Below are positions 37,939 to 55,538 of a DNA stretch of 64,000 nt, piece after piece. The stretch spans positions 544,001-608,000 of the forward strand of contig CBDEFO010000007.1 in NCBI GenBank assembly GCA_965237525.1. Reading direction: 5' to 3'. The notes beneath the pieces are model-generated. The model was not told where the DNA came from and ran no database searches. It saw only the letters and a program-made list of their open reading frames with translations. Source of the stretch: Candidatus Latescibacterota bacterium (GTDB taxonomy: Bacteria > Latescibacterota > CBDEFO01). The position numbers and the translations under genes were made by a program. Each line of letters starts with the position of its first letter. The first letter of the stretch is position 1.

Positions 37939-38018
37939 ATACGACAACCAACGAACCGAAGCAAAGTTAGGTATTGACGTACAGATACCCCCTGACACAA
38001 AGTTCGGGAGATAGGAAA

Positions 38019-38411
38019 ATGAAAACGAAAAGACATATCCTGATAGTTGATGATGAGCAGGGTACATAAAAGACCTTAGGCGACATCTTGAAGGATCAAG
38101 GTTTTCAGGTCGTCCCAATTTCCTGTGGTCGTCAAGCTGTCCAAAGCGCCAGAAAGGTTCGCTTCGATTTGGCTCTTTTGGACATCAGGCTCCTAAAAAC
38201 AGATGGTGTCGAGATCTTTAAACATATTAAAAGTATCGACTCGGACATAAAAGTGATTATGATGATCGCATATTCTGACACAAGGCTAATCCGAAGAACT
38301 CTGGATTATGGGGCTTGCGCAGTAGTCCGAAAGCCATTGGCTCCCGAAAAGTTGGTAAATTTCATCTGCAAGGTATTATCTATTGAGTATGTCACGGATC
38401 CAAAAGCTTAA
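38019..38411 (+). pseudogene. Single-domain response regulator with in-frame TAA (38067)
   Basis: MKTKRHILIVDDEQGT*KTL...LLDIRL. Confidence 0.8.
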
Positions 38412-38800
38412 GCGCTGATATTACCTTTTAACATGACGAGTTCGTTTTTTTTGATAAGCCTCGAGTACAAAGGGATAGCAGAACTCTTCAATATGTCCAC
38501 AGAGAAGGTTGAAAACAGCTTCCTAGAGGGCAAGACAGGAAATAAAAGCCTTTCTTGCTAGCTGATTGGAAATTCCAGAAGCAGACTTACACCGGCATAT
38601 TTTGAAAATCCTTAGTGGCGATCCCTATCTCCCATCTTTCATAACGATTCTTGTCAATTCCAAGTTCAGTTACTCAATTCATTGAAAAGGATTGATAAGA
38701 TAAACAAGTTTATGAGGGAATCGAACGAGTTCTAAAGGAGGAAAATGATTTAGAGGATGAGACTGTTCACGATGTAAGTTTGTAGGAAGAGATAAAAGAA

Positions 38801-38953
38801 TAGCTCCATCTTAGAAACTCGCAGCTTGAAGGAGGAACTTAACCAACTTTCAGGCCGGTTATTCCTCCCAAGCTCCACCAAAAAAGATCTTGGTAGCCCT
38901 TTCTCTGTGCCCGAAGGCACATACGGGGCTTTGTGTTTCTGAAGATGGAGCTA
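38801..38953 (-). ncRNA. Candidate structured non-coding RNA (multi-hairpin junction)
   Basis: Terminal stem of ~18 bp, C(UUCG)G hairpin, G-U pairs favouring the minus strand, upstream promoter, downstream U-rich tract. Confidence 0.55.
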
Positions 38954-38958
38954 ACCCA

Positions 38959-38987
38959 AAAATAGTTATTCCTGACCGCCTTGTCAA
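38959..38987 (-). promoter_or_regulatory. Sigma-70-type promoter for the candidate ncRNA
   Basis: TTGACA-17 nt-TATTTT, ending 5 nt before the stem. Confidence 0.55.
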
Positions 38988-39088
38988 GCTAAAAAGAAGA
39001 GTCTGACGAGTTAGAAATAGAGGTTAAGGAACGAATGGCTTGAGCTTTTAAAGGTCAATGCAATTCTGGGGGAAGGACTTAAACAAAG

Positions 39089-39255
39089 TTGACCAAGTGG
39101 CAAAGAACCATTGAGGAAACCATCCATGCCCTGGCATTAGCAGTCGAAATGAGGGACCCGTACACAGCCGGCCATCAGCAACAGGTCTCCAAGCTTTCCT
39201 GTGCCATAGCTGAAGATATGGGCCTTTCAAAAGACATGACTGATGGAATCCTCCT
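39089..39255 (+). pseudogene. Partial duplicate of the HD-GYP gene, cut by a MITE
   Basis: Close copy of ~32035-32192 (IEETIHALAL.VEMRD.YTA.HQQQVS). Confidence 0.85.
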
Positions 39256-39486
39256 AAGTAGCTTAACAAAACTTATCGGATATAAGTAGACAGGGATATC
39301 CCTTGAGATTGCTTCGGGGCTTTGCCCCTCGCAATGACAGAAAGCCCGGACGAGCACGGCATTGCGAGCAACCCCCGATTGACTCTATCGGGGGTCGAGG
39401 GGAAGCAATCTCACTTAGGTTGCCTCTTCCTGTATATTGCCCACTATTTTGGAAATCTTGTCCAGACTATTTTGACCCGATACTTA
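39255..39486 (+). mobile_element. MITE family B, long copy
   Basis: Imperfect TIR TAAGTAGCTTAACAAAA / TTTTGACCCGATACTTA; carries the GAGATTGCTTC...GAAGCAATCTC palindrome and one 19-bp insert. Confidence 0.7.
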
Positions 39487-39558
39487 GTTTTCTTTTGTAT
39501 CTTCTCTTCTAAATATGATCTATAACCCCTAGTCAAACCATAAGAAAGCGAGGCGGAT

Positions 39559-39765
39559 ATGAACAAGTCAGATAAAATTGCTGCCTATAAAGAAGGCGGC
39601 TTTCCGAGTGACAAAAGGAGAGTGAGCAATGGGACTGGACTTCCAGAGCAATTAAGGGTCACTCAACTTCAGGAACAGTTCGTAAATCTCATTAATCAAA
39701 AGCCTGAGGAAGTCGTACAGCTTATAAGGACATGGCTGGCCGAGACAGATGAACTTGTTAAATAA
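39559..39765 (+). pseudogene. fliF: FliF C-terminal remnant
   Basis: KPEEVVQLIRTWL matches the FliG-binding tail of FliF; directly upstream of fliG. Confidence 0.6.
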
Positions 39766-39795
39766 GACAGAAAGGCTCAAGGAGGATTGATCTTT

Positions 39796-40832
39796 ATGAA
39801 CGATTCTAATCTTTTCTTAAAAGGACGCCTGAGCATCACAGAAATACAGAAAGCCGCTATACTAACGGTCGTTATGGGAGGAGATGTAGCCTCCCCATAT
39901 TCAAGAACCTCAGAGACGACAAAGTCGAGCAGCTCACGGTCGAAATTGCCCAGTTGGGGGATATCCCCGCTTCGATCACAGAGTCTGTGCTGGAAGAGTT
40001 CGCGCAAATGATCCAGGCAAAAGAATACATCTCCAAAGGAGGTATCGACTTCGCAAATGAAGTGCTTCAAGAGGCATTAGGATCCCAAAAGGCAGCTGAG
40101 ATTATGGAGGGCGTCCAGAGCGTCATAAAAGTCACCGGGTTTAGAAGACTAAGGGAGGTAGACCCTGAAGAAATTTTGGACTTTATACGGAAAGAACACC
40201 CCCAGACGGTAGCTCTTATATTAGCCAACTTAAGACCCGAACAATCTGCCGCTATATTGGCCAAACTCCCAGCTCAAAAGCAGCAAGACATAGCATATCG
40301 CATCGCCACTATTCAGAAGATCCCTCCTGAGGTGATAGAGGGGATCGAAGTGGCACTTGAGGCCCAATTTGAATCTACGATCAAAGGAGAACTCACCATA
40401 CCAGAGGGCGCGAAGATAATGGCAGAACTTCTGAACTCAGCCGACAGAGCTATAGAAAAAAGCGTCCTTGCCGAACTCGGAACTAAGGATCCAGAACTGG
40501 CTACGGAGATCAAGGAGCTTATGTTCGTCTTTGAAGACATAGTCACTCTGAGTGCCAAAGACCTTCAAAGAGTACTGTTGGAGGTGAAAACCGAAGACTT
40601 GGCCATAGCTTTGAAAGGCACAACCGACGATCTCAAATCTTCAGTTTTTGCAAACGTCTCCAAACGTTTGGCAGCTATCATACAGGAGGAGATGGACCTT
40701 TTGGGCCCAGTCAGATTACAATACGTGGAAGAAGCTCAAAAGAGGATAGTAGAAGCTGTGCTGGACCTTGAAGATAGAGAAGAGATAGCAAACATAGGGG
40801 ACAACAAAAAAGGAGGCATAATTGTTGAGTAA
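39796..40832 (+). pseudogene. fliG: Flagellar motor switch protein FliG, frameshifted near 39895
   Basis: QKAAIL in one frame; EHPQTVALIL, MFVFEDI, GPVRL in the other. Confidence 0.88.
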
Positions 40833-41039
40833 TACAGCAAGACTTAAGTGGTCGACGGTATAAGATTCAAGAGAAGGTATTTTGTGTATTCTTGTTTTTA
40901 AGACTCTATCCGGTCTATTGGTTATTAGGAATGATCGTAGGATTGGGTGCCAGTAATGTCAAGCGTCTATGTCATCCCCGATAGCTTCAATCGGGGGTAG
41001 GGCCTGTTTTACCATCCCTTGAGCGGAGGAAGAACTAGG

Positions 41040-41491
41040 ATGAGCAAATATGCGTGGCAAATATTGACACTATTGAGGCCGGGGATGCAGGGAGGAGTTC
41101 CGAGGAAAGCCGGAACTTTGACTCGAAAGCCACAGCACGTGGATTCGGTGGAGTGTGCTCGGTGTGGCGGTGCCGGTATGGATCGAAACTCCCCCCACTC
41201 GGTGCTGGGTCTGCAGCGGGAAAGGGCACAAAAAAATGCGGCCGCCGGTGATCACCTGTGCCTTTTGCCGCGGGAAGGGACAGCCCCGAGGGACCGAGAT
41301 AACCTGTCCGGTGTGTTGTGGCCGTTGGTGACGTTTCCGTCCGGGAGCCTATAGTAAGGTGTCCAAAGTGCGGGGAAAGAGGTGGAAATAGAGGGGTCCG
41401 GCTCTAATGTATGGAGTGTAAGGGTCACGGCGTGGTCACTGCGAAAGCTAAAAACAAGGATGCCAACTTGGCCGAAGGGGCGATAACGTAA
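41040..41491 (+). pseudogene. DnaJ-type zinc-finger repeat protein (six CxxCxGxG-like units), frameshifted
   Basis: CARCGGAG, CWVCSGKG, CAFCRGKG, CPVCCG, CPKCGERG, CMECKGHG across frames. Confidence 0.7.
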
Positions 41492-41917
41492 AAATCGCTT
41501 CAACGGTCAGTTGCCAATAAAGAGGTAGCCCCTACTGCTGAAGTTGCTGAGGCGACTGGTCGTAAGGAGAGGGCTAACGAGATAACCATACGGTACTGAG
41601 GTAGACCCCCGGTCCCCGATCGAGTCTATCGAGGATCGGGGAAGAATCCTAAGGCATATGTGTTTATTAAAGTTATTGTTTAACCCCGCTGGGACAGTGT
41701 AGCTCTGGGCTGATTTATTGACTTTAGAAGCCGGTTTATGTCCCACACAGTGGACAAAGGGGGTGTTAATATATCAGCTGATCAAACCAGAGCATCCGTA
41801 AGGGCACTGGCTGAAGCGTAGTAAAAGCGGAAACAGGCAGCGAGGAGACTCCAGCTACGCGGTGATGGTCTCCCGCTCAGCGGGGATCCTAACCTAGAGA
41901 ACTGGAGGCTGGTAAAT

Positions 41918-41967
41918 GTGAAGCCACGTTGAGTCACCGCCTACGGCGCGGCTCGACGTGGCTTCAC
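41918..41967. repeat. REP-like 50-nt inverted repeat
   Basis: GTGAAGCCACGTTGAGTC...GGCTCGACGTGGCTTCAC. Confidence 0.6.
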
Positions 41968-42423
41968 TTGAGGACGGAAATCAGAACCCATAAGATCAAC
42001 GTTCCAGTTCGGGTCTACTGTGAAGCTGACATACGCCTTATTAACCGGAATCCCTTGATGTCTCTGCTGAAATGTAACATACCAGTTTCCAGAACCTTGG
42101 CTGGCCTCCTTAAACTCAACGTCAGACATATTCACCTTGAGCAGATCTTTGTAATCTGCAATGAAACTTCTGCTTATAGTTTCAACATTGCCTTTTTGCA
42201 GTGATACAGCACCGGCAAAATACCTATCCATCTTGACCCCATGGCCCACTATTCTGTGGGGGCTTTTGGTGATAGGATTCTGAAAGGCAGTAAGCTCGTT
42301 GCCATATATGCCCACGAGCATCTGTCGTTCCAACCCTCTCTGGGCATAGGAAGGACTGTTAAAAGTAAGGGATAAAACTACGCCCAATACTAAAGATAAG
42401 TACGTGCACGTTGAATGTCTCAT
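41941..42423 (-). pseudogene. Secreted metalloprotease propeptide (FTP-like) fragment
   Basis: Signal peptide, WYVTFQQRHQGIPV; no HExxH catalytic domain; ends in the hairpin. Confidence 0.55.
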
Positions 42424-43061
42424 GGTAACTTCTCCTTTCTTATTGCACTCCAGGTTCCAGCATCAATTGCAATTTCTTTCTGTGTTAGTCCAAATTCCTC
42501 ATACGTCCCATCCATCATAGGGCTGTTTACGATTCCCCTTGTTGTCAGACGATATTTGGCAGGGTAAAGCTCGCCAGCTCTGAGGGATATTACCAATGGC
42601 CACTTAAAAGAGAAACTTTGACTATCAGCTATCAACGTATCCACTTGGGCATCTGATAGTATTATGAGCACCCCGCCAACATTTAATGGAGTATCTGTAA
42701 TTTTTAGACGTCTCTTGAATATATCATAAAAGTACGGGGGCATTATGTGTAGATTACCAAAACTCAAGATGCCCTCAAAAGTCTTTTCATCCCCTGTGCT
42801 TTCGCTGATCAGGCTCCCTGTCCACAAGCCACTTATGATATTTTGAACCTCTTTCGGGTCAATATCTTGGTCTTCCGATAGCACCTTTATGACCTTATCT
42901 TCACCACAGGCCGCTAGGAATAGAGAGATTATAAAGACGCTAGTTGATGTTATGAAAGAGACTTTGCTCATCAAGCATTTCATGTGTCTGTCCACTGCAA
43001 TATTTCTTCTGATCGAGATTGAATTGTAGAATGGTGTTTGTAGCTTTAGGCTTTGCTTCAT
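42420..43061 (-). CDS. Hypothetical lipoprotein
   Basis: FLAAC lipobox after a hydrophobic stretch; true start may be a later ATG. Confidence 0.6.
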   Translation of the reverse strand: MKQSLKLQTPFYNSISIRRNIAVDRHMKCLMSKVSFITSTSVFIISLFLAACGEDKVIKVLSEDQDIDPKEVQNIISGLWTGSLISESTGDEKTFEGILSFGNLHIMPPYFYDIFKRRLKITDTPLNVGGVLIILSDAQVDTLIADSQSFSFKWPLVISLRAGELYPAKYRLTTRGIVNSPMMDGTYEEFGLTQKEIAIDAGTWSAIRKEKLP

Positions 43062-43328
43062 TGTAAACCCTCCTCCTTTCCGTTACCTGAAGCCACTGTC
43101 GCTTGCAGCTATGAAAGCTCTTTATGTTAATAGCAGTAGCCTTTGGGGGAGACAAATCTAGGTAAGCTATCGATGTTACATAGAATTCGTGAAAGAGACC
43201 GTACACAATTCCATAAGGCTCTTTGCTTGAATCAGGATAAGATTAGCAATCTATATCTCTCATATACTACAATTCCAACCCTTTGTCAAGCTGCTTTGAT
43301 GATATAATATATATATTTCACAACTATT

Positions 43329-43561
43329 TAGCCCGATTAATTCATAAACTTGGTGGAGTCATTGCGAGGAGCAAAGCGACGAAGCAATCTCAAGGTTTTA
43401 TAGCGGTCTCCTATGAGAGCCGGGAGTATTACATCTACCACAGAATCGAGATTGCTTCGCCTTCGGCTCGCAATGACACCGAAGGTGGTTAAACGGCATA
43501 ACTATAAATAATACAAACCCTTAATTAATACACGGCCTTTTTTTGTGAATTATTCGGGTTA
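43329..43561 (+). mobile_element. MITE family A, copy without inserts (233 bp)
   Basis: TIR TAGCCCGATTAATTCATAAA / TTTGTGAATTATTCGGGTTA, TA ends, no transposase. Confidence 0.8.
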
Positions 43562-44049
43562 GTATTTGTCAACTATTTTACAAATACGGTTCTTCTCCAA
43601 AAAGTGTAGTAGCGGGTAATTCTGTTTCATGTTGTCTTGAGTTTTTGTATAAGTTAATAGTGGTAGTAGCGGGTAAGTAGTGTAGTGGTTGTGGGGTCGC
43701 TTTAGGCGATTTAAAGGATATGGTTAAGTCGGGTACTTATTGCTTTATTCATATTGCTTCTCATTGCGAAAGACCTGCCTTATATAAGGGATACTGTATC
43801 AGGCATTACTGGCAGGTCAAGCGGTATGGAAGGCTAATCCCTGAGAGGGAAAGAGAGGTAGATCGGAGCAAAAAAGGAGAGGAGAGGAGCTAATGGCAGG
43901 AATAATTGCGTTTGACAACACTTTTTCAGACAACAGGAACAGATATCAGATTGTCTTTTTAAGAAGCTATGGCCAGCTTTTGTGCTACTACTATGCTACT
44001 ATTTAGGGAAAATAAGGACCAATATTGGTATTTAATGAACACTAATGGG

Positions 44050-44086
44050 AAAAAGAAATTCCTCATAACTTATTGACTATGAGGAA
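44050..44086 (-). terminator. Intrinsic terminator after tRNA-Lys
   Basis: TTCCTCATA/TATGAGGAA stem followed on the minus strand by TTTCTTTTT. Confidence 0.7.
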
Positions 44087-44091
44087 CTTAT

Positions 44092-44167
44092 TGGTGAGCC
44101 CGGCAGGAATCGAACCTGCGACCAACGGCTTAAAAGGCCGCTGCTCTACCGACTGAGCTACGGGCCC
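44092..44167 (-). tRNA. tRNA-Lys (anticodon TTT)
   Basis: GGGCCCGTAGCTCAGTCGGTAGAGCAGCGGCCTTTTAAGCCGTTGGTCGCAGGTTCGATTCCTGCCGGGCTCACCA, 76 nt with CCA. Confidence 0.97.
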
Positions 44168-44174
44168 AACGTCC

Positions 44175-45194
44175 CTACATTTTGCCTTTGCGAAATGCGG
44201 TTATGTATTCCATACAAAATTCGTCTGCCCCAACAAGAGCGTTGTATGCTAACTGGTATTGTGTAGATTGAGTGTCAATATTAGAGATACTTTCAGATTT
44301 GATCTGTAACGGATCTATTATTCCGCTGTCGCACCCGGCGTCTACAGACAAATGGATAAATACTTCGTTTAAGAGCCTCCGGTTGGGCATTCCAAAAGAG
44401 ACGTTGCTAAATCCTCCTGTAATATGAATCTCATCCCCGTAGAGGTCTCTTATCTGTTTGACTGCATCCAGGAAAAACCTCCCGTATCGAGAATCTACGC
44501 CTATGGGGAAGACGAGAAGGTCAACGAACACATCGTTGTGGGCGATGCTGAAGCGTTCGACAATTTCCATCAGCCTCTTTACGTTTTCCACTCTCTCCGT
44601 ATCATCGTCTGGCATTTTAGTTTTACCGAAGGCGGTAGCTATAATCTGGCAGTTTTTCTCCTTTGCCAATTCTACTATGTCGGGGCGTTCCAGAGATGCG
44701 GAGTTGAGGATAGACCCTCCTTTGGAGTAATCATAGACCTCAACACCTGATTTGATATTGTCCGTTGCGGAAGAATCTATGCTCAGGGGCAAATCTACGT
44801 GTTGTTGGATTGTCGGCACTATCCACTCCATAGCCTGAATCTGGACCTGGGGATTCGGTGCTATCTCATCTACATTTACGTCCAGGTAGTGTGCACCAGC
44901 CTCTACTTGCCTTCTGGCTGCGTAAAGGATATACTGCCGGGCTTCCTCCTGATCGTCTTTGTTTACTGATATTCCCTTGTCAACGGCGATCCTAATGTGC
45001 TTTATCTCATTTCGTTGATACTCCTGCGTTTCCTTGTAACTTTCAGGGATTGTCAAGTATCTGACATTCCCTCCAGAATCGGTGAACTTGATAGCTTCAG
45101 TACCGTCTTCCAGCGCTTCGACTCTCCTGCCATCCCTTCTGTAAACTCTGGTTGTATGTATGTTTTCGCCTATTATTATCAGATCACAAGACAC
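44175..45194 (-). CDS. Pterin-binding methyltransferase (methyl-THF:corrinoid, AcsE/MetH pterin domain-like)
   Basis: IIGENI, GAHYLDVN, PLSIDS, ILNS, GFSNVSFGMPNR, IIDP. Confidence 0.85.
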   Translation of the reverse strand: MSCDLIIIGENIHTTRVYRRDGRRVEALEDGTEAIKFTDSGGNVRYLTIPESYKETQEYQRNEIKHIRIAVDKGISVNKDDQEEARQYILYAARRQVEAGAHYLDVNVDEIAPNPQVQIQAMEWIVPTIQQHVDLPLSIDSSATDNIKSGVEVYDYSKGGSILNSASLERPDIVELAKEKNCQIIATAFGKTKMPDDDTERVENVKRLMEIVERFSIAHNDVFVDLLVFPIGVDSRYGRFFLDAVKQIRDLYGDEIHITGGFSNVSFGMPNRRLLNEVFIHLSVDAGCDSGIIDPLQIKSESISNIDTQSTQYQLAYNALVGADEFCMEYITAFRKGKM

Positions 45195-45305
45195 TTTTGA
45201 ATCTCCTGTTTTTACCCGGCATTGGCACGTCTATTGCGCAGGAGTGACGGCTTATCTTAAATATTAAACATGAACTAAAACTCCGGGAAAGTCAAAATAT
45301 AGGTG

Positions 45306-45830
45306 TTACAATTTTATGTCCTTTCCCTCTATGTAGTTCTTTATAAAGCTCACGAATTTAGTCAAGTCGCCTAAGTTCTTGCGAAGGAACCGATACACGT
45401 CCTCCACCGCAACCTCGGCGTATTCGTGGACCAATATATTCCTGAAGCCAGCCATGCCCGAAATAGAGTGAGCGAAGTCTTTGGGAATCGCCCCGATTTC
45501 TCCTAATCTCTCTATTATCTTCCCGTATTCTTCGTACCTGTTTACACCCTCAGCAGAGAGGATATGGCCTCCGATCTCTAGAACGTAGTGGATAGCTATC
45601 TGAAGACCATGCTCCCTTGCCCAGAGGATCTCTCAATTTCCTGCTGCATCCGCAAGACCATATCGCTTCAGCCCCTTGAGGGTCCTGAGTGTGCTATCAA
45701 TATTCCTATATGAGCCTTCAGCGTGTTAACATCATATATGATTTTGCACTTTGGCAAAGCGACCTCTCTCTATCCGTTTGTTGAGATAGTAGCTTTGTAG
45801 ACCTTATAAGTCGTCCCCTGAACTGGATAA
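45306..45830 (-). pseudogene. HEPN (DUF86/HepT-like) toxin with disrupted 5' end, preceded by a probable nucleotidyltransferase scrap
   Basis: MAGFRNILVHEY (RX4HXY); stops and frameshifts upstream. Confidence 0.7.
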
Positions 45831-46079
45831 TGTCGTCAAGTTTGAAAGCTTAGTAATAGTTCTGAAGATCGCTTGTAGTTATGCTGGTGACTTTAGACAT
45901 ATTGCTCTCCTTTGCATTGGCCTGCAAAGACTTCAGTGATCTTTATAACCTTCATAGAGTTCTTGAAGAGATGTGGGAAAATAGCGTCCTTGCAATCAAC
46001 GAGCAGTTGAATTTATTTGAATTGAATCTAGATGGAACTCGTACCATCCGTTTCCATGGAGCCCACTGAAGGTGGATTA

Positions 46080-48614
46080 TCAGGAACGGGTGGCGACAAA
46101 CTTGGAGTCTGGAGCAGTGATGCGGGCTAAAGTCTTAGCCAGGGGATAGGACTGTTCTACCTTTGCCGCTCCCACGCCCACGGGGATAAAGTTGCCCCCT
46201 TGAGCGTCCCAGATGGCCTTGTTGAGACTGTAGCTTCGGTCGCGGGCGTCATCGTACGCAGGATCGGCAAAGACGTCATAAAGACCCTGAATTTCGCCTT
46301 TAGCGTCCAGTTTAATGATCACCGACACAGCTACACCACGACTGTTGACGGTCGCTATCGCATCCTCAAGTGCAAGCGGCGTGGGGAACATATTGTGCGA
46401 CCCGCGTCCGTCCCCCTGAGTCATATAAAAGCCGTCTCTCATAAATAAGTTGAGTGCGTTGGCCAGCGGCTCTACCGCCAGGAGCACAGGATCGTCTTTG
46501 CCGCGATATTCTCCGCCTGTGATTACGGCTAGCTTCTCTGTGGACGCAGAAAGGAGAATATCGCCCAAGCTCTCAAGAACAAGCTGCGCATCCCACTCCT
46601 CTGTGGTTCTCGTCCAGATGCGCTTAAAGTTAAACTTCTCGGTGGCCCCCAGGAGGTTTTGTGCCTGGTGAGCCTCGCTTTCGAAATCCAGAAAGATGCG
46701 CTTGTGTCCTTCGACATCCCAGACCTCGACGACTAATCCCTTTGCGTCTGTCCCCTCCAAGTAATGGTTCAGGCTACCGTCTGCTGTGGTCTTGTTTAGG
46801 CTGTACCAGACTGGGAGATTGAAAGCCGAAGGGCCAGATTTATCTATAGCCAAAAGTCCTACATTAGCAGCTTTGGGCATCGGAAGCTCGGCAAAGCCCG
46901 GCCCTTGGCCAGATACGTTCCCTGCAAAGACGGGCTCAGGCTTGTGCCCCTTTTCTCGTCCTGTCTTCCATTGATTATATGCAGATTTAAGTTTATCTAT
47001 ATATATACGTTCGGATTCGGGCAGAAAATCGGGCAGAAGTTCTATGAACGCATCGTCTATTTCTGCTAATTCTTCAGTTGTTCGCCCCTCTGTCGCATCT
47101 CCCACCAGATCCTGTCCCAAGCCGTACCACTTATACCCGATAATTTCAGCCACCCACACCTGACGGAAAAAGGTCTTATATGCAAAAAGATGAATCGGAT
47201 TGCAGTCAACGCCTTTATCGTGGCTCATCAAAAGGTGTCCGTCGTCTCCCACTTCTAAGATTTTCGACGTTCCATATATAAGGCCTATATTTTTGGCCTC
47301 CTGGAGGCTCGCCTGTGCTACGTAGCGGAAGTGATTTGGCGGTGTGGTATGACCTATCTTTCCACCGCTGTCCGCCTTGATATCTGAGATAGTGAAGATG
47401 GACCGCTCGTTTGCTCTGACGACCACTCGATCTTCATGGTCAGGAATATCCATGAAGCGGTGCGACAGACGTTCGGCCTCTCCAAATGCGCGCCCTTCGG
47501 CGGTCTCGGGATTAAGGTAAGGCTCAAATTCCCCGTGCATTGTCATATAACGGATCAGGTTCCCTGCGTCTTTTTGGAGCCTTCGAGTCTCCGGCCTGTT
47601 CTGGGAGAAGATGTCCTCAACGTCTAGCCCCTGGGGGATGCGGCCCTGGTCGTAGGATTGATACGCGTACGCTGGGACCTTCGCGGTTCCTTCACTTATG
47701 GCTGTACTCTTTGCCTCTTCAAAGCTTACAGGCATAAGCCCCACTCGATATCCGCCGTCTTTACCCCCTGGTCCGAAGTAGAACTCTGCAGTGGACTGTG
47801 TGTACTCCCCTATAGCGGGTAGTCCCGATTGAGAGCGGCCGATTAAAATGGGTGAGAAATTGCCTTCTACCATAGCGGCTGGTTCGTCTTTAAGATCTCC
47901 TTCTCCAAAGCGTCCGCCAACTGCGTATACCTTGCTCAATCTCCATTCGTCGGCATCGGCAACAAGCGATTGCAGTTCATTCATCTGGCCCGGTCCAAAT
48001 TCGTAGGTTCGCACTTGAGATTTAGCGGACCTTAGGTCTTGGATGCTCTCTACGAGGGCGGAAAAATAGTTTCCCTCGATGCGTCTTCCCGATCCTTTAT
48101 CCGGGTTGAAAAATAGATTGAAGAGGGCTCGGTTGAAAAACCCCCAGCTTCCGTTTATGGCCTTTGCCACATAGATCGGTTCTGCGCCTCGCTCGGTGAA
48201 GGGGAAGTCCAAGTATCTTATGCCAAGGGCTTGAACCTGATCCTCAGGATCCATGTCTATTATGCTCTTACCGTCGTCGGGCTGATAAAGTCCCATTTCA
48301 TGAGCCTTTTTCAGAGCCTCTGTTGCCGCTTTGCGCGCCAGCTCAGCGGCACAAGTAGAAGGATTATTGCGGTAAGAGTTTCCGTCGAAGAAGTCCCCGT
48401 TATAAGTCGTAATATGCAGATGGAGATCCCCTCCAAATATGTTGGTCCACGCCCCTTTGAGCGTCCCGTTATCCACTTTGTCCCGCAAAAATTGATCGGC
48501 TACCTGGATGACTCCAATAGGTATATCACCGCCAAGAAGACTGCCCAGATCTATGCTGGCGATAATGACATTTGACTGAGTCGAAGGACGGTTTTCCATT
48601 CCTTTCAATCCCAT
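46080..48614 (-). CDS. fbp: Tandem two-domain class V fructose-1,6-bisphosphate aldolase/phosphatase
   Basis: C-terminal half: IKADSGG.IGH, GDD, YGLGQDL, GNVSGQGPG, DKSGP, YRGKDDP, RGSH; N-terminal half: ERGAEP, RSQSGLPAIGE, LMPV, HGEFEP. Confidence 0.85.
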   Translation of the reverse strand: MGLKGMENRPSTQSNVIIASIDLGSLLGGDIPIGVIQVADQFLRDKVDNGTLKGAWTNIFGGDLHLHITTYNGDFFDGNSYRNNPSTCAAELARKAATEALKKAHEMGLYQPDDGKSIIDMDPEDQVQALGIRYLDFPFTERGAEPIYVAKAINGSWGFFNRALFNLFFNPDKGSGRRIEGNYFSALVESIQDLRSAKSQVRTYEFGPGQMNELQSLVADADEWRLSKVYAVGGRFGEGDLKDEPAAMVEGNFSPILIGRSQSGLPAIGEYTQSTAEFYFGPGGKDGGYRVGLMPVSFEEAKSTAISEGTAKVPAYAYQSYDQGRIPQGLDVEDIFSQNRPETRRLQKDAGNLIRYMTMHGEFEPYLNPETAEGRAFGEAERLSHRFMDIPDHEDRVVVRANERSIFTISDIKADSGGKIGHTTPPNHFRYVAQASLQEAKNIGLIYGTSKILEVGDDGHLLMSHDKGVDCNPIHLFAYKTFFRQVWVAEIIGYKWYGLGQDLVGDATEGRTTEELAEIDDAFIELLPDFLPESERIYIDKLKSAYNQWKTGREKGHKPEPVFAGNVSGQGPGFAELPMPKAANVGLLAIDKSGPSAFNLPVWYSLNKTTADGSLNHYLEGTDAKGLVVEVWDVEGHKRIFLDFESEAHQAQNLLGATEKFNFKRIWTRTTEEWDAQLVLESLGDILLSASTEKLAVITGGEYRGKDDPVLLAVEPLANALNLFMRDGFYMTQGDGRGSHNMFPTPLALEDAIATVNSRGVAVSVIIKLDAKGEIQGLYDVFADPAYDDARDRSYSLNKAIWDAQGGNFIPVGVGAAKVEQSYPLAKTLARITAPDSKFVATRS

Positions 48615-49015
48615 GGTTTTTTCTCTCCCTAATCAAGATAATTTGACCACATTCCAACAGGTAATCCTACCTCAATATCGCTCTAGTGTTTGCTCCTTTT
48701 CCTAGGATCAGATAAACAAAAACCTGATGTGACAATATAAGACAATTCCAGTAAAAGGCAAGCAGTTTCTGCTTGGTGCAGGCATATTTAATTCTTCCAA
48801 AAACGCCAGTTGAGTCGGAGCCAAGCGAGGTTTTGAGATCAAGTGTGAGAACTGAATGATCCTATTTATTGATCTAAATACACTATTTCAATCTGGCGGC
48901 TGGGTACCCAGCCCTTGGGCGAGGGAATCTGGCACCTACACTATGTTCAATCAGTACTCGCTTACCATTGGAAAGAAAATTAAACGATCCTGGGCTGCTG
49001 TCCACGTTTCTATCT

Positions 49016-49462
49016 TTACGATGAGGCGGTCTCGGAAGACCAGCTTGGAACCACATTTTCGCCCTCAATCCAGCCTTCTCCTTTTTCCCACATCTCCTTC
49101 TTCCATATCGGAACAATCTCTTTCAGACGATCTATCGCATATTCAGAGGCTTGGAAGGCCTCCCTCCTGTGAGGTGATGCCACAGCGATAGCCACACTTG
49201 CCTCTCCTATATCTAATCTCCCTATGCGATGAACGATAGCCAAATCTTCTATTCCCCACTTCTCTTTAATTTCATCCGCTATCTGTTTCATCTTCGTTTC
49301 GGCCATCTGCTCGTAAGCCTGATACTCTAGGTACCTCACACCTTTACCCAGAGAGTTGTTCCTGACCACACCTGCAAAGGTCACGACAGCTCCATCTGCG
49401 TCCTTTCTGACCATCTGCGCCAGTTTTTCTACATCGATTGCATCTTTGACTATTTTAAACAT
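49016..49462 (-). CDS. moaE: Molybdopterin synthase catalytic subunit
   Basis: GAVVTFAGVVR, LEYQAY, HRIGRL, SPHR, VPIWKKE. Confidence 0.93.
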   Translation of the reverse strand: MFKIVKDAIDVEKLAQMVRKDADGAVVTFAGVVRNNSLGKGVRYLEYQAYEQMAETKMKQIADEIKEKWGIEDLAIVHRIGRLDIGEASVAIAVASPHRREAFQASEYAIDRLKEIVPIWKKEMWEKGEGWIEGENVVPSWSSETASS

Positions 49463-49509
49463 AATCAACCTCCAACGCCGAAGATATGACGGCAATCACA
49501 TTTTTACAA

Positions 49510-49755
49510 TTAACCGCCGCTTACCGGAGGTATAAAGGCTACCTCATCTTTGTCATTTAGCTTTGCTTCAAAGTCGGTGTACTCTTTATTCAGAGCCACA
49601 AAGAGATTCCCCTTGAGGTTCGATAGTTTCGGAAATCGATAGGCGACGTGGTGCCAGAGGTCGCCTATGGTTCCTTTTTCATTTAACTCTATTTCTATCT
49701 CATCTGTGCCTACAATATCCCTGCACGATGCGAAAAATTTTACGTTGATCTTCAA
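49510..49755 (-). CDS. moaD: Molybdopterin synthase sulfur carrier subunit
   Basis: VKFFA, DEVAFIPPVSGG C-terminus; TTG start. Confidence 0.92.
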   Translation of the reverse strand: MKINVKFFASCRDIVGTDEIEIELNEKGTIGDLWHHVAYRFPKLSNLKGNLFVALNKEYTDFEAKLNDKDEVAFIPPVSGG

Positions 49756-49774
49756 TTTGTCGCCCTTTGTACTG

Positions 49775-50875
49775 TCACTGATTTGTCCTTTTTCTCCCCA
49801 TTTTCTCCCAAAAGGTTCTTCGATACGCCCCTTTCCTCCAGCCCTCATAACCCACGACGAAAAATATGATCGTGGCCTGAATGACATAGACCATTACCGA
49901 CGAGACTCCGGCTGCTCTTTGCATGTTCCCGGCGCCTGCGTTCATAGCTCCGAACAGAAAGGAAGAGAAGATCACACCTATGGGGTTTAATCTCCCCAAA
50001 AGGGCGACAGCAATAGCGGTATATCCGTAGCCGGGTGAGAACTTTTCGTAGAGTCGATACGTCAATCCAACTAGCTCAACAGCTCCTGCTATCCCCGCAA
50101 GACCGCCGCTTATCAGCATCGTCAGTAGGATGTTTTGTTCGACCTTTATCCCTGCGTACCTGGCAGCCTGAGGGTTTAATCCCACGGACCGAATTCTGTA
50201 GCCCAAGACTGTCTTGTAGAGCAGAAAATAGGCAAAACACGCCAAGACTAAAGCTAAAATCACGCCTGCATGTAGACGCGTCGGAGGCGCTATCCTTGAG
50301 AGTCTTGCTGCCTCATATACAGCGTCACTTTGGGGGAATTTGCCCGCCTTTTCCATAAGGGGGCCGTGCACGGCCCAGCTCGCTATCTGGATAGCTACAA
50401 AGTTGAGCATTATGGTGCTGATTACTTCCTGAACGCCCCTTTTTATCTTCAGTATTGCCGCTATGCCTGCCCATAGACCTCCAGAGATGAACGATACCAA
50501 AAGGATCAGGGGAAGGAGGATAAATCCAGGAGTAGAACTTATCGATGTCCCTATCCAGGCCGCTGAAAGTGCGCCCATATACAATTGCCCCTCAGCCCCG
50601 ATATTCCAGACGCCGCACCTGAAAGCCAAAGCTACCGCAAGCCCTGTAAAAAGCAGGGGACAGGTCTTCAACAAGGTCTCTGAGAGGCTGTATCTGCTCC
50701 CGAAGGCTCCATCTAAGAGCGCCTCGAATGCGGCCGTGGGACTCTGTCCTGAAAGATGGATAATGATGCCGTTTACGATCAAAGCCGACACCACAGCGCC
50801 AAGTGGAGTCCCCAACGCTCCAACTGTCCCCCAAAGAGTTCTTCGATCCATAACTTCAAGCCGCCCTTTTTTCAC
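49775..50875 (-). CDS. Nucleoside/sugar ABC transporter permease
   Basis: WNIGAEGQ, EVISTIMLN, GYGYTAIAVALLG. Confidence 0.9.
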   Translation of the reverse strand: MKKGRLEVMDRRTLWGTVGALGTPLGAVVSALIVNGIIIHLSGQSPTAAFEALLDGAFGSRYSLSETLLKTCPLLFTGLAVALAFRCGVWNIGAEGQLYMGALSAAWIGTSISSTPGFILLPLILLVSFISGGLWAGIAAILKIKRGVQEVISTIMLNFVAIQIASWAVHGPLMEKAGKFPQSDAVYEAARLSRIAPPTRLHAGVILALVLACFAYFLLYKTVLGYRIRSVGLNPQAARYAGIKVEQNILLTMLISGGLAGIAGAVELVGLTYRLYEKFSPGYGYTAIAVALLGRLNPIGVIFSSFLFGAMNAGAGNMQRAAGVSSVMVYVIQATIIFFVVGYEGWRKGAYRRTFWEKMGRKRTNQ

Positions 50876-52388
50876 CCATCATCATCAAGCCTATTTCGTC
50901 CCTTGGCGTTTTGGGAGACACAATTCCCATCAGCTTGCCTTCGAACATAATTCCTACTTTATCGCTCAAGGACAGGAGTTCGTCTAACTCCGTAGAGATC
51001 AGGAGCACAGCGCTGCCCCTTTCCCTTGCCTCCGAAAGTTTGCTATGGACGCATTGCGCCGCCGCTATATCGAGTCCCCTCGTCGGGTTCACGGCTATCA
51101 GAATATCCGGCTTTCTTGACAGCTCTCTGGCGATGACGACCTTTTGTTGATTTCCCCCCGAAAGGGAATCCGCCGAATCGTTTGGCCCTTGGGCCCGAAT
51201 GTCAAAATCACGGATGGCCTGAAGGGCAAAATCCCTTGTCTTCCGGCTCTTTAAGATGCCCCACTTTGAATACGGAAGATTCCCGTGTGTCTCCAAAATC
51301 AGGTTCTCCAAGAGCGAAAATCCCAATATAAGGCCCATCTTACGCCTGTCCTGGGGTATATGCGACCCATTGTGTTCAATCAATTTCTGAACCGACCAGT
51401 CCGTCTGTTCTTTTCCCTTAATCAGCATCCTTCCTGAGGCTATTTTCCTCAACCCTGACAGGGCTTCGGCCATCTCGGCCTGTCCGTTTCCGTCCACTCC
51501 TCCTATGCCAAATATCTCTCCCGATCTGACCTGAAGGCTGATTCCGCCGACGACTGGGACGCCGATTTTGTCAAGAACTTTCATATCCGCTACCTCAAGG
51601 ACGACATCACCTCTCGGCACCTCCTTTTTTGTTATCTTTTGAGCGGTTTCTCGTCCTACCATCATCCGGGCTAACTTTCTTCTGTCGGTATCTTGAGGCT
51701 CCATTGTCCCTATTACTTGCCCTCCCCTTAACACGGTCACCCTATCGCTTATCTTCATAACTTCATCCAACTTGTGGCTGATGAAGACTATCGAACGCTT
51801 GTCCTTTTTGAGCTCCTCCAGAATGTCGAACAGGTCTTCCACTTCTTGAGGAGTCAATACGGCCGTAGGCTCGTCCAGGATCAATATCTTGGCATCTCGA
51901 TATAAGGCCTTGAGTATTTCCACACGCTGTTGAGCCCCCACAGAGAGGTCTTGCGCCAGGGCTTTGGGGTCCACCTTCAGTCCGAACCTCCCGGATAGGT
52001 TTTCCACGTCCTTTTGGGCCTCAAGTCTGTCGAGCATTATCCTTTTTAGAGCATTCCCCACACCTTCGCGTTGTACTCCTAATACGACGTTTTCTGCCAC
52101 AGTGAAGACAGGGACGATCTGAAAGTGCTGGTGGATCATCCCAATTTTCGAATTTATCGCATCCTTTGGAGACTTGGGATGTATTCTTTTGCCGTTCAGA
52201 AGTATCTCTCCTGAATCTGGCCTGTAGAGGCCGTAGAGGATGTTCATTAGCGTAGTCTTGCCCGCTCCATTCTCACCCAAAAGGGAATGGATTTCGCCCT
52301 CCTCAAGTGAAAAATGGACTCCGTTCAGGGCTATGTTCGAGCCAAATTTCTTATTTATATTTTTAAGTTGCAAAAGAGCCAACGTCAA
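50856..52388 (-). CDS. ABC transporter ATP-binding protein (two ATPase domains)
   Basis: GENGAGKT, LDEPTAVL, LSGGNQQK. Confidence 0.93.
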   Translation of the reverse strand: MTLALLQLKNINKKFGSNIALNGVHFSLEEGEIHSLLGENGAGKTTLMNILYGLYRPDSGEILLNGKRIHPKSPKDAINSKIGMIHQHFQIVPVFTVAENVVLGVQREGVGNALKRIMLDRLEAQKDVENLSGRFGLKVDPKALAQDLSVGAQQRVEILKALYRDAKILILDEPTAVLTPQEVEDLFDILEELKKDKRSIVFISHKLDEVMKISDRVTVLRGGQVIGTMEPQDTDRRKLARMMVGRETAQKITKKEVPRGDVVLEVADMKVLDKIGVPVVGGISLQVRSGEIFGIGGVDGNGQAEMAEALSGLRKIASGRMLIKGKEQTDWSVQKLIEHNGSHIPQDRRKMGLILGFSLLENLILETHGNLPYSKWGILKSRKTRDFALQAIRDFDIRAQGPNDSADSLSGGNQQKVVIARELSRKPDILIAVNPTRGLDIAAAQCVHSKLSEARERGSAVLLISTELDELLSLSDKVGIMFEGKLMGIVSPKTPRDEIGLMMMGEKRAA

Positions 52389-53401
52389 AACTTTCCTCTA
52401 GGGACCTGAAATTCGCCCGATCTTATCTTAGCCTCCATCAGGTCTATTCTATCTCTGACGTCTTTGGGTATTCTATCCTCTAACTTGGGATTATAGGCCA
52501 AGGAAACTATCCCTTCCTTCATCCCTAACCACATAATATCAGGTTTAAACTGTTTGTCTTTCACTTTTTTAGCCACTTGTAAAAAGCTACTCGGAATGTC
52601 TAAAACAGCGCTTGCCAGGATCACTTCCGGGGCAATGTGGTTCTGATCTGCGTTTGAGCCAAAGGCATAGACGTTTGCTCTTTCCTTAACGGCCTGAAAG
52701 ACACCCAGGCCCGCAGCGTCGGCATTGTGGAGGATGAAATCTGCGCCCTGATCGATAAGAGCCAGTGTCGCCTCCTTGGCCGCGCCTGCGTCCTCCCAGT
52801 TGCCTATGTAGGACTTAAGGATTTTAAAGTCGGGAACTGCATCTTTTGCTCCTCCTTCAAAGGCTATAAACGTGCTCTTGACGGAGGGAATTGCCACTCC
52901 GCCGACCACTCCAGCGACCCCTGTTTTGGACATCAAAGCCGCCATCATTCCCATGAGGTACGTCGCTTCCTCAAGTTCGAAGACCATAGGAGCCACATTG
53001 TCCCTTACAGTACTTCCTGACGTGGTTATAAAGACTGTGTTCACAAAATCGGGCGAAACGGCCGCGGCGGTGTCCTGAAACTCGAATCCGTGTCCGAAGA
53101 CTAAATCGAAGCCCCTGCTGGCGTAGTCTCTGAATCCCTCCTCAAACTCCGCAGGTGTAACGGTTTGGACCTGACTTATCTGCGCTCCGAGTTCGTCTCT
53201 TATCCTCAAGAGTCCCTCGTAAGCTATAGCGTTCCATCCTGCATCGCTGACCGGGCCGGGGCTTAAAAGGGCTACCTTGAATTCTTTCTCCTCTGCTTGT
53301 TGGTTCTTTTTTGAGCAGCCGATAGCAAACAAGAGTGAAAACAGAAGTAATACCGATAAGATAGCTCTGAAAATCGGACCCAAAACGCCTTTGTGTATCA
53401 T
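52385..53401 (-). CDS. BMP family ABC substrate-binding lipoprotein
   Basis: AIGC lipobox, DAGWN..AYEG, GHGFEF, IDQGAD. Confidence 0.9.
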   Translation of the reverse strand: MIHKGVLGPIFRAILSVLLLFSLLFAIGCSKKNQQAEEKEFKVALLSPGPVSDAGWNAIAYEGLLRIRDELGAQISQVQTVTPAEFEEGFRDYASRGFDLVFGHGFEFQDTAAAVSPDFVNTVFITTSGSTVRDNVAPMVFELEEATYLMGMMAALMSKTGVAGVVGGVAIPSVKSTFIAFEGGAKDAVPDFKILKSYIGNWEDAGAAKEATLALIDQGADFILHNADAAGLGVFQAVKERANVYAFGSNADQNHIAPEVILASAVLDIPSSFLQVAKKVKDKQFKPDIMWLGMKEGIVSLAYNPKLEDRIPKDVRDRIDLMEAKIRSGEFQVPRGKF

Positions 53402-53669
53402 CGAACCTTCCCTTCTTTGCCTCTCTAATGGACATATATAAGAGTGTAACAATTATAATAAATTTATTCTACCGGGTCAAGACCCTTTTTCTTGGATGAG
53501 CACCTGCTCTGAGGGGGAAGGAGTGGTACAGCGTACACTCCGCATGCGACCGGAAGAGAAAGTTGGCACCAAACAGCAGAAAGGGCGTCCTACCTAGGCT
53601 TTGTGTATAGATACATTATACTGCTCTGCTCGCTATAACGTTGCTTGCTGAAGCCTTCAATCCATGGCA

Positions 53670-53992
53670 AGTGCCTCCCGCAATGTCCCACAGCACGGTC
53701 TCGACCGCACCGATCTCGACGATCGCGCCTCCGTCGTTCCAAGAGTCTGATGTGGTGCATCTCTTGCCCATTCTGTTGGACCTGGAGAGGATCTTCTGCT
53801 GTAGGAATCTGTTCTAGTTCCCCGTCGGTCTGGACGATTGCGTCCCCTCTAGATTCAATCCGGGGATGACCAGAGACGGAGACTCGGCGTGCACGACCCC
53901 CTCGAAGCCCTCGTGCGTGTGCACCTGGACCACGGTCTCGATCGCCCGACCGGTCTTGAAAGTAAGATCGTCTCTACTTCCGCGATCTTCAT
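53670..53992 (-). pseudogene. Mandelate racemase-family N-terminal fragment
   Basis: MKIAEVETI, VQVHTHEG, GAVETVLWDIAG across frameshifts; contains a degenerate palindromic insert. Confidence 0.6.
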
Positions 53993-54056
53993 GACTTCGT
54001 CCTTCCTGCTATTCTCCGATCATCCGTCGCTGATACTCTTTCCCGCTTGCACAACG

Positions 54057-55280
54057 CTAATCATCTTTCAAAAATATCACGAACGGAAGCCCCAATAGCA
54101 TAACCGCTCCCGCAACGTAAAAGATCGTATTGAGACCATATGCATCTCCAATGAGCCCGAAGAGAGGCGGCGAAGCGGCGGCGGAGAGGAAGTTTAGAGT
54201 GTAGTATAGAGCATATCCCCGACTCCGACGCAGAGGATCGAACGTAGGCGCCAGCCCGATGTATATCACAGAGGACGTCCCATTGAGCATAAACCCGAAT
54301 ATCGGCAAAAAGAGTACCATAACCCATCCTGGAGGGACCGAGGGGAGGGCGTAACAGCCGAGTATCATCAGCAACTCTGTGATCAGGATGATCCTTTTTG
54401 CTCCCAATTTCCGGATCGGCATGCCGCACAGGAGCTTTCCGACCGCTCCGCCGAAAAAGGTCAAAGACATAAGCCACACATAGCCTGTCAGACTTACAGA
54501 GTCACCTTTGATTCCTCTTTTGATCAGTAGAAATCCCAAAAATGCCACAGCGGCATTCCGAACTGCAATATCGAGGAATCCGATGATGGAGTAGAGGGTA
54601 AACTGGCCCGGCCTTTTGATGCCCCAGTTGGCAAAAAAAGTTCTTCGATGTGCCTCATTTATTTTATGCTCTCTGTCCTTCAGGGCTTTCTGTCTTCTGG
54701 CGCTGATGTCCCTTCGAAAAAAGAAGAGATACAAAAGGGACGTTAAAAGTCCGATGATCCCCAGTACAGCAAGGCTCCCTTGCCATCCAATTCTTGGGTC
54801 GATGACCAAAACTCCCGCTAAAAGGGGGAATAGCACCTTTCCAACATCTCCGGAAAAATTCAATGTTCCTATAGCCGGACCAGATTTTTCAGGCGGATAG
54901 ACATTTGAGATCAGGGCGGTTCCCACAGGGTGATACGCGCCTCCCCCTATCCCGGATGCAAGTATCAGCATCAGCGTGATAGGGTAGCTGAACGCTAAAA
55001 GCAAAAGCATATAGCTCAGGCTGAACCAAGCAGTTCCTAAGCCCAGCGTTAGTATCTCTCCGATACTTTCGGACAGGAGTCCCGCCGGTATCTGAGCTGC
55101 GCTTATCGCTACGTAGCTAGCGGCCTTAAGGAGGCCGGACTGGGTGTAGGTCAGATCGAGATCGGATGCGATGAAGGGAAGTAGAAGGGCTAAACTTACA
55201 ACGTAACCGTCGTTAACGATATGAAGGAGACTGCACCACCAAAGCTGTCTTTTCGGATTATATTGAATAGGTCTTTGCAT
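54057..55280 (-). CDS. MFS transporter
   Basis: HIVNDGY, GIGGGAYHP, about 12 hydrophobic segments. Confidence 0.88.
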   Translation of the reverse strand: MQRPIQYNPKRQLWWCSLLHIVNDGYVVSLALLLPFIASDLDLTYTQSGLLKAASYVAISAAQIPAGLLSESIGEILTLGLGTAWFSLSYMLLLLAFSYPITLMLILASGIGGGAYHPVGTALISNVYPPEKSGPAIGTLNFSGDVGKVLFPLLAGVLVIDPRIGWQGSLAVLGIIGLLTSLLYLFFFRRDISARRQKALKDREHKINEAHRRTFFANWGIKRPGQFTLYSIIGFLDIAVRNAAVAFLGFLLIKRGIKGDSVSLTGYVWLMSLTFFGGAVGKLLCGMPIRKLGAKRIILITELLMILGCYALPSVPPGWVMVLFLPIFGFMLNGTSSVIYIGLAPTFDPLRRSRGYALYYTLNFLSAAASPPLFGLIGDAYGLNTIFYVAGAVMLLGLPFVIFLKDD

Positions 55281-55538
55281 TATTGGGAAACCTCCATCGA
55301 GTCTGGAAGGGGCCCTATCAAATCACGATAGTCTCCAGATTATGAAGCTTGTCCCCGAGTGATTCTATCGCGGACTTGACCTTTCAGTTCCTACAAGATC
55401 CCTGTAAGCCTACTCCACTTCTGGAACCGAAGTCCTTGTCTCCATACGTTGAAGGTCCTTGTCACTTTGATATGGCAGGTAATCTATTACGAAATGCTAT
55501 AGCTTTCTCTAATTTGCAAACATCTTAGTTCTGTTCCC

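Follow-up and report, generated by a model that had tools for sequence, protein, structure and literature searches.

A gene for a tandem class V aldolase/phosphatase of fructose 1,6-bisphosphate

The window analysed here is a stretch of 64,000 nucleotides from the genome of a Candidatus Latescibacterota bacterium (contig CBDEFO010000007.1, positions 544,001 to 608,000). On its minus strand, at 46080..48614, lies an open reading frame (ORF) of 844 aa, P0001, which the ORF list and matches to PF01950 (FBPase_3) identify as a tandem class V aldolase/phosphatase of fructose 1,6-bisphosphate (FBP). PF01950 is the only Pfam family in this protein, which scores 250.4 bits in three stretches against a curated cut-off of 25. 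In a profile scan of the genome the N half matches profile positions 9-340 (E 1.4e-21) and the C half positions 3-102 (E 1.4e-18) and 100-329 (E 5.5e-31). The initial annotation of this DNA, which placed two class V repeats in the ORF and expected two matches to the family profile, is therefore borne out. A class V enzyme is normally a single domain of about 360-400 aa, a length from which P0001 departs with its two repeats. The fusion is not an assembly artefact, because in an independent run (X3) a single contig covers the whole stretch without gaps and with 7 differences, and because 118 near-full-length relatives, of the kind that the initial annotation proposed to look for, could be aligned with P0001. 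These relatives belong to what we term the stand-alone family, for which a scoring of 7996 candidates gave 211 matching proteins of 464-1477 aa. The best 120 of the 211, P0001's own cluster aside, are 61-72% identical to P0001 and nearly all full length, and their source names include Acidobacteria and Nitrospinota. The family alignment comprises P0001 and the 118 relatives (119 sequences), with the own cluster and one partial sequence left out. An RNA run yielded two 151-base contigs on the P0001 gene, which are not evidence of transcription, and promoter and terminator scans gave results at the level of shuffled sequence (4 vs 3.5; 5 vs 3.4).

The features of P0001 all lie on the minus strand of the window and are compared below with residues of the single-domain enzyme, whose numbering (D12, H19, D132/K133, Y229, K232, D233/D234, Q242/H243, R266, D287, E347/Y348) was counted from alignments to the solved enzymes ST0318 and that of Thermoproteus neutrophilus. 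The N repeat, residues ~10-392 (47439..48587), has the full FBPase_3 fold, as judged from PF01950 and the fold match, and the column comparison described below shows that it has lost the catalytic residues and, in the stand-alone family, the Schiff-base loop; it is the predicted loop donor. Two motifs of this repeat are confined to N halves: E141-R-G-A-E-P146 (48177..48194), which corresponds to R121/E124 of the single-domain enzyme and had not been picked out before, and the loop R260-S-Q262-S-G-L-P-A-I-G-E270 (47805..47837), which corresponds to the R240/Q242 loop. A further motif of this repeat, H360-GEFEP365 (47520..47537), is the counterpart of HGPFxP, and the Glu-Tyr that should follow it is lost in the N half. 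A short linker between the repeats, residues ~393-403 (47406..47438), is helical in the predicted structure.

The C repeat, residues 404-844 (46083..47405), combines the full fold with the catalytic set according to PF01950, the fold match and the alignments, and is the predicted catalytic half. In the alignments its motifs are, in order, K413-A-D415...G421-H422 (47349..47378), with the equivalents of Asp12 and His19; G456-D457-D458 (47241..47249), with those of Asp53 and Asp54; Y497-GLG-Q501-D502 (47109..47126), which holds the Tyr91 and Gln95 equivalents and contains G500-Q501-D502; D591-K592 (46839..46844), equivalent to Asp132 and Lys133; Y703-R-G-K706-D707-D708, followed by Pro (46491..46508), with the equivalents of Tyr229, the Schiff-base Lys232 and Asp233/234; and R737-G-S-H740 (46395..46406), with that of Arg266. 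All the motifs that the initial annotation had named in either half are present in the translation. The C half is not canonical throughout, as the Asp287 position is occupied by the non-canonical S758 (46341..46343), which is invariant in the stand-alone family, and the canonical Glu347-Tyr348 is replaced by E820-x-x-Y823 (46146..46157). Between GQD and GN there is a predicted helical insertion of ~55 aa, residues ~506-560 (46935..47099), recognized from the model and from a comparison of spans. The insertion reported earlier after GQDL is thus real, since the distance from Q501 to N566 is 65 residues in 111/119 family members and 10 in 26/27 single-domain enzymes, a difference of +55.

Complementary conservation of the two halves

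A profile search of 1.84 billion representatives returned 418 matches at E 0.001 or better, and distant modules were collected from the best 150 of the 418. Among the matches listed, in proteins of at least 700 aa, there were 57 modules in which an N half is followed by a C half; coverage was adequate in 41, which were retained, and the other 16 were set aside. These 41, with P0001 and 4 further members of the stand-alone family, form a set of 46 modules, for which 27 single-domain enzymes provided the reference. A column was counted as conserved when at least 80% of the 27 single-domain enzymes agreed, and as kept in one half of the modules at a threshold of 70%. By this measure 100 columns are conserved, of which 40 are kept in C halves only, 7 in N halves only, 8 in both and 45 in neither. 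The complementary loss of motifs, first proposed from P0001 by itself, is strongly supported by this wider set; what does not stand is the notion of an N half wholly without the catalytic motifs, for D63, the equivalent of Asp54, is kept in 118/119 family members.

The seven N-only columns are V48, G64, R121, E124, R240, Q242 and A247, so that the polar ones are R121, E124, R240 and Q242. The equivalents of Gln242 (Q262) and Arg121 (R142) are found in 46/46 N halves and hence in 41/41 distant modules, and the R-x-Q motif of this loop is present in 0/46 C halves, which consequently lack the Gln loop that a class V enzyme has in its catalytic domain. The initial annotation had described a Q-S/H loop, and of this the Gln is indeed conserved, but the residue that follows it varies among the single-domain enzymes (G in 8, K in 7, S in 6 and H in 6 of 27). 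On the other side of the ledger, C-half residues D457, D458, Y497, Q501, D591, K592, Y703, K706, D707, D708 and E820 are present in 41/41 distant modules, and in the C halves of the 46 modules the metal ligands and the Schiff-base Tyr and Lys are kept at 96-100%. Within the stand-alone family each of the Mg-ligand positions (D12, H19, D53, D54, Q95, D132, D233, D234, E347) is filled in 119/119 C halves, whereas D54 alone of them is well kept in the N half; K706 and Y703, equivalent to Lys232 and Tyr229, are invariant and occur in the C half only. Missing from the N half are the equivalents of H19, D53, Y91, Q95, N105, D132, K133, Y229, K232, R266 and E347. Its Schiff-base loop is shortened by ~12 residues in the stand-alone family, and most distant modules keep the length of this loop and not its residues. 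In C halves the segment D708-G734 is typically three residues shorter than the canonical one.

Comparison with the sister genome gave ratios of nonsynonymous to synonymous substitution (omega) of 0.35 for the N half and 0.105 for the C half and, by segment, 0.65 for residues 1-140 and 0.24 for residues 141-395; these rest on small substitution counts. Both halves appear to be under purifying selection. The faster evolution of the N halves is what one would see if the N half were an inert spacer or stabilizer attached to a self-sufficient C half. We regard this as very improbable, as Q262 and R142 are invariant in 46/46 modules, exactly where the C halves have lost them. A complementary pattern of this kind would be predicted if selection acted on one composite site, and it would be hard to explain with an inert N half.

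A search for free-standing N halves gave 52 matches among 3738 candidates of 30-463 aa; among the 11 of these that were examined there was no intact split pair, 9 family-like ones having the look of fragments or frameshifted pieces and 2 being ordinary single-domain enzymes. A separate observation concerns P0266 (459 aa), a free single-domain homolog without the equivalents of Tyr229/Lys232, Gln95 and Lys133 that keeps an ERPSEP motif and a RAESG loop; judged by these residues, it is possibly a stand-alone dead subunit.

Predicted fold and a composite active site

An AlphaFold2 model of the whole P0001 chain, built on the 119-sequence alignment, has a mean predicted local distance difference test (pLDDT) of 83.8 and a predicted template modelling score (pTM) of 0.84. 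The value of pTM implies, as far as a model can, a defined packing of the two halves. The top seven Foldseek matches of the model are all FBP aldolase/phosphatases, and the solved structures of this enzyme that were matched are all single-domain. With VIA-align, model residues 13-389 gave Z 31.1 against 1umg (329 residues aligned, root-mean-square deviation 2.9) and residues 405-844 gave Z 31.9 against 3t2d (350 aligned, root-mean-square deviation 3.4). For both halves the values against 1umg, 3r1m and the 3t2x entries are Z 30-32, and the next unrelated row is at Z 9.1. The N half of the model thus adopts the FBPase_3 fold, as had been supposed when the two repeats were first described. Values of pLDDT below 50 are confined to the N-terminus, to six active-site loops of the C half and to residues 263-265 of the N half, a pattern that fits a shared flexible site and is suggestive only, as it proves nothing. 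A model of the N half alone (pTM 0.80) is less confident than the full chain at residues 261-280 and 361-398; its alignment consists largely of fragments, and this difference is hence uninformative.

The class V enzyme is a homo-octamer with active sites between subunits. The explanation that we favour, with moderate confidence, is that P0001 is a gluconeogenic enzyme with one composite site, in which the Gln loop of the N half is lent in cis to the site of the C half. P0001 derives from a tandem duplication of a class V enzyme, and complementary residues have been kept in its halves; since decay has taken the original site of the N half and the donor loop of the C half, there would be one site and not two. 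The resulting single-chain pseudo-dimer would convert triose phosphates to fructose-6-phosphate for gluconeogenesis. Its C half would bind Mg2+ through D415, H422, D457, D458, Q501, D591, D707, D708 and E820, form a Schiff base at K706 with Y703 as the acid/base, and then hydrolyse the 1-phosphate. Q262-S263 would come from the N half, with R142, E145 and R260 as a brace, in the manner of the adjacent subunit of the octamer. The same division of labour could also operate in trans, with fused chains that still assemble, for example in fours as an imitation of the octamer, so that each C site is completed by the N loop of a different chain. The conservation pattern would be equally expected in that case, and the additional invariant N-half residues of the motif D172-K173-G-S-G-x-R178-x-E180 (D172, K173 and R178 in 119/119) could form an oligomer surface. 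Nevertheless, we consider assembly in trans unlikely. The module occurs also in polyproteins of 1000-6400 aa, and twice in one of them, P0174, for which one can hardly imagine assembly into a ring; the linker is short, with ~48 residues from P365 to K413 in P0001 and mostly 41-59 across modules; and the single-chain model packs the halves against each other.

The N-half site

The initial annotation went on to suggest that the dead site of the N half was free to become regulatory. In the stand-alone family a cluster of N-half residues is indeed highly conserved: D63 in 118/119 sequences, H65 in 116, H67 in 119, K151 in 118, D172, K173 and R178 in 119 and R290 in 115. An allosteric ligand site at this place would be compatible with a composite site in the C half, and the cluster speaks for it. 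Several observations make it quite improbable all the same. Residues 1-140 are the most variable part of the protein, with 4/140 columns conserved at 98% or better in 120 sequences, compared with 100/260 for residues 141-400 and 111/284 for residues 561-844, and it is to residues 1-140 that the highest omega belongs, on few changes. Besides the site residues listed above, the N half has in the stand-alone family lost the Schiff-base loop as well. Finally, the candidate residues are not kept across the 41 distant modules, where D63 is found in 21/41, H67 in 18/41 and R290 in 4/41, and K173 is mostly replaced. The proposal of a regulatory site thus finds little in its favour, and the family-conserved cluster leaves some room for a ligand site or for an interface. 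We assume, with some uncertainty, that the active site of the octameric enzyme is formed head-to-tail between neighbours; if it is, the N-half site would simply represent the second interface, now abandoned, and no pocket would be needed.

Substrate and metabolic context

A composite site of the kind described might also act on a changed substrate, either another ketose bisphosphate, such as sedoheptulose- or tagatose-bisphosphate, or a non-sugar phosphate. The family is able to switch in this manner, as shown by CinF of Coxiella burnetii, a close homolog with high similarity that has lost FBP activity, and in ST0318 Tyr347 is reported to be required for FBP phosphatase activity (both in the parts of PMC8740755 that were available). 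The insertion of 55 aa in the lid region of P0001 would be in keeping with such a change, as would the substitutions at the Asp287 and Glu-Tyr positions, since Ser758 and the Tyr of ExxY (Y823) are each found in 119/119 family members and differ, on the substrate side, from the solved enzymes. Moreover, Arg266 is Asn in 20/41 distant modules, which suggests, from the alignment, a sub-clade with altered substrate binding. Asp287, however, is also missing from 12/27 single-domain members, and Arg266 is kept as R737 in 119/119 members of the stand-alone family. As P0001 is, in addition, the sole intact candidate that the genome offers for its step, and as gluconeogenic enzymes occur together with it, we think a changed substrate improbable.

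In the source genome (G000; completeness 96.6%) searches for GlpX, FBPase I, FBPase_2, class II aldolase and PFK (PF00365) found nothing, and apart from P0001 no intact FBP aldolase or dedicated FBPase was detected. Both of the genome's class I (DeoC/FbaB-like) aldolase genes are broken. One (L011:1384-2260; C8:1648087-1648779) has several in-frame stops and looks decayed; the other (L012/L013; C3:353602-354128) is split over frames and lies ~2-4 kb from the matches for transaldolase and PGI. The class I aldolase matches of the sister genome are also short pieces. Searches of the source genome with tblastn gave matches for TIM, GAPDH, PGK, PGI, TAL, PEPCK and PPDK. Class II aldolase is present in 20/31 genomes of a phylum sample and is not found in the source genus, in which upper glycolysis may have been lost.

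Besides the substrate-side substitutions, the Arg266-to-Asn modules and the example of CinF, several points weigh against P0001 as the gluconeogenic enzyme of its host. It falls below the cut-off of the NF041126 equivalog (520 bits), with 236.2 bits for the whole protein, 75.4 for the N half and 166.2 for the C half. GlpX and FBPase I are each found in 0/31 genomes of the phylum sample, and because they are missing throughout the phylum their absence from the source genome says little. The source genome has one gene of the inositol-monophosphatase family, and a carrier of the fused gene in Anaerolineae (G061) keeps intact DeoC-family aldolase genes. The roles of the residues themselves (metal ligands, Schiff base and partner-subunit loop) are those that we take to apply in the solved enzymes. 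One practical consequence follows from the low score: automatic annotation rates the family below the equivalog cut-off, and carriers can therefore look as if they were without gluconeogenesis.

The neighbours of P0001 (moaE/moaD, a BMP-type ABC transporter and a pterin-binding methyltransferase) are not conserved across loci. Over 19 loci no conserved operon was found, the neighbours being mixed; the exceptions, in related loci, are PPDK and a gene for ACP synthase III. A PPDK-like gene lies directly downstream of the fused gene in three of these (L022:6560-9349, L024:7324-10302 and L026:7324-10317), the assignment in L026 resting on the same position and length as the copy in L024; the three loci are probably one lineage. 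Within the window, the methyltransferase gene (PF00809) is at 44175-45194 on the minus strand and is AcsE/MetH-like, below all NCBIfam cut-offs. Just downstream of P0001, at approximately 45305-45950 on the minus strand, broken frames resemble a decayed toxin-antitoxin pair made of a nucleotidyltransferase and a protein that we take, from its motif, to be DUF86/HEPN. A FliG gene lies at 39954-40832 on the plus strand as the one flagellar ORF evident in 38000-56000, and a short ORF at 41941-42423 on the minus strand, with a weak match to the fungalysin/thermolysin propeptide, is possibly a truncated protease.

Distribution, giant proteins and origin

Among named genomes, a 97% identical copy of P0001 is found in another Candidatus Latescibacterota of the same genus (G001) and a 65% identical copy in the Anaerolineae genome mentioned above. 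A phylum sample of 61 genomes contained the fused gene in 2/61, with one single-domain enzyme and one fragment. In Anaerolineae the fused gene was present in 1/251 genomes, and 59/250 others had single-domain matches, none of them the fused form. The three genomes that carry the fused gene show no single-domain copy. A search of viral contigs gave 204 pattern matches and no relative of P0001. In the ESM Atlas, the N half's top cluster is represented by a 900-aa protein and comprises 502 members, 73% of them bacterial, with Methanobacteriota as the commonest named phylum.

The same tandem module is present in dozens of proteins of 1000-6400 aa among the matches listed, a link to giant multi-enzyme proteins that goes beyond the initial annotation. 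Of 24 longer proteins scanned, 7 also carry TIM, GAPDH, PGK, PGI, PGM, TAL or PEPCK domains, and P0174 (3495 aa) has two complete tandem modules, that is, four FBPase_3 repeats. A signal-peptide-like start was seen in 33/38 proteins of at least 1000 aa, by a crude screen that flags P0001 too. P0001 itself, with 844 aa and PF01950 only, is not of this type, and the source genome contains no stop-free frame above 2315 codons.

In a tree of the halves of 21 modules and 11 single-domain rows, the N halves are monophyletic (21/21; Shimodaira-Hasegawa-like approximate likelihood ratio test 100) and their branching order broadly matches that of the C halves. P0272, taken for a single-domain enzyme, is placed among the C halves in this tree and is possibly a fragment. 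In both halves P0231/P0244 and then P0238 branch first; all three are without the insertion and keep Asp287 and Glu-Tyr, yet they already show the split between N and C residues. The signal-peptide-like starts of these earliest branches favour an origin in such large proteins. In maximum-likelihood trees the stand-alone family comes out nested within the large proteins. Against this stands the result of an approximately unbiased test, on 38 of 73 rows, in which the sister alternative to nesting was not rejected (p 0.141), and a mixture model does not force the nesting. A far smaller value from the same kind of test (p 1e-65) was discarded as evidence on origin, since other stand-alone rows drove it.

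It is likely that the tandem design arose inside very large, probably exported multi-enzyme proteins. A domain within a long polyprotein could not easily form an octamer, and the neighbour that it lacks would be provided in cis by a tandem copy; the stand-alone versions of 830-900 aa would then have split off later and spread patchily. A more complete scenario, which we offer tentatively as possible, is that an obligate octameric enzyme was turned into a self-sufficient monomeric pseudo-dimer inside exported giant polyproteins, with the duplication, the complementary loss, the helical cap and the re-tuned C-terminal loop preserved in living intermediates, and that unrelated bacteria then acquired the freed module by transfer, so that it took the place of the aldolase and FBPase of their own gluconeogenesis. 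If so, giant proteins would give rise to new stand-alone enzymes, and the enzyme domains embedded in them would be functional.

Comparison with known systems

In the literature searched, which included few subscription papers, no paper on a tandem FBP aldolase/phosphatase was found, although preprint supplements could list double PF01950 matches. PMC12965863, in the part available, has a passage on the bifunctional enzyme, and the main text of bioRxiv 10.64898/2026.06.07.730766 makes no mention of fructose, FBPase or aldolase. Giant proteins of Omnitrophota, the Archaeovorins, have been described with fructose 1,6-bisphosphatase, TIM, PGI and PGM domains (bioRxiv 10.1101/2023.11.21.568195, as far as its text was accessible); the word "tandem" is absent from its main text, and complementary loss is not described in the accessible passages. 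The large proteins found here carry the tandem module with these domains, a likeness from which we infer that they belong to Omnitrophota. P0001 differs from them in that it stands alone and has no other domain. The strict conservation of catalytic and donor residues in embedded modules argues, nonetheless, that enzyme domains in giant proteins are selected to work, and P0001, which is small and probably cytoplasmic, would be an easy stand-in for assaying them. CinF belongs to the same family and has also been repurposed, as a secreted protein phosphatase without FBP activity (PMC8740755, in part). It is a single domain of 382 aa, and P0001 differs from it in architecture and host and shows no evidence of a CinF role.

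FBP aldolase/phosphatase counts as an ancestral enzyme of gluconeogenesis. P0001 resembles the class V members (PF01950, NF041126), including Sulfolobus tokodaii ST0318 (1umg, 3r1m) and the T. neutrophilus enzyme (3t2b-3t2g), in the fold of both halves; it shares the metal ligands, Tyr229/Lys232, Asp132/Lys133 and Arg266 with them through its C half and the Gln242 loop through its N half. It is unlike them in its two repeats, in the division between these of own- and partner-subunit residues, in the insertion, in the Ser at the Asp287 position, in ExxY and in its score. Because the single-domain chain, the Gln loop in the catalytic domain and a score above the equivalog cut-off are all lacking, P0001 is not an ordinary member of class V. 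It may for this reason be informative about the ordinary members: a natural single-chain form with one site would separate own- from partner-subunit residues, and conservation would mark R121, E124, R240 and Q242 as the partner's contribution. Such a form also allows asymmetric mutants, unlike a homo-oligomer. In eukaryotic PFK and in the 100-kDa hexokinases, duplicated and fused chains likewise contain a half that is non-catalytic, and that half is regulatory. P0001 shares with them the tandem duplication and the loss of catalysis in one half; the conservation of its N half points instead to the role of a loop donor.

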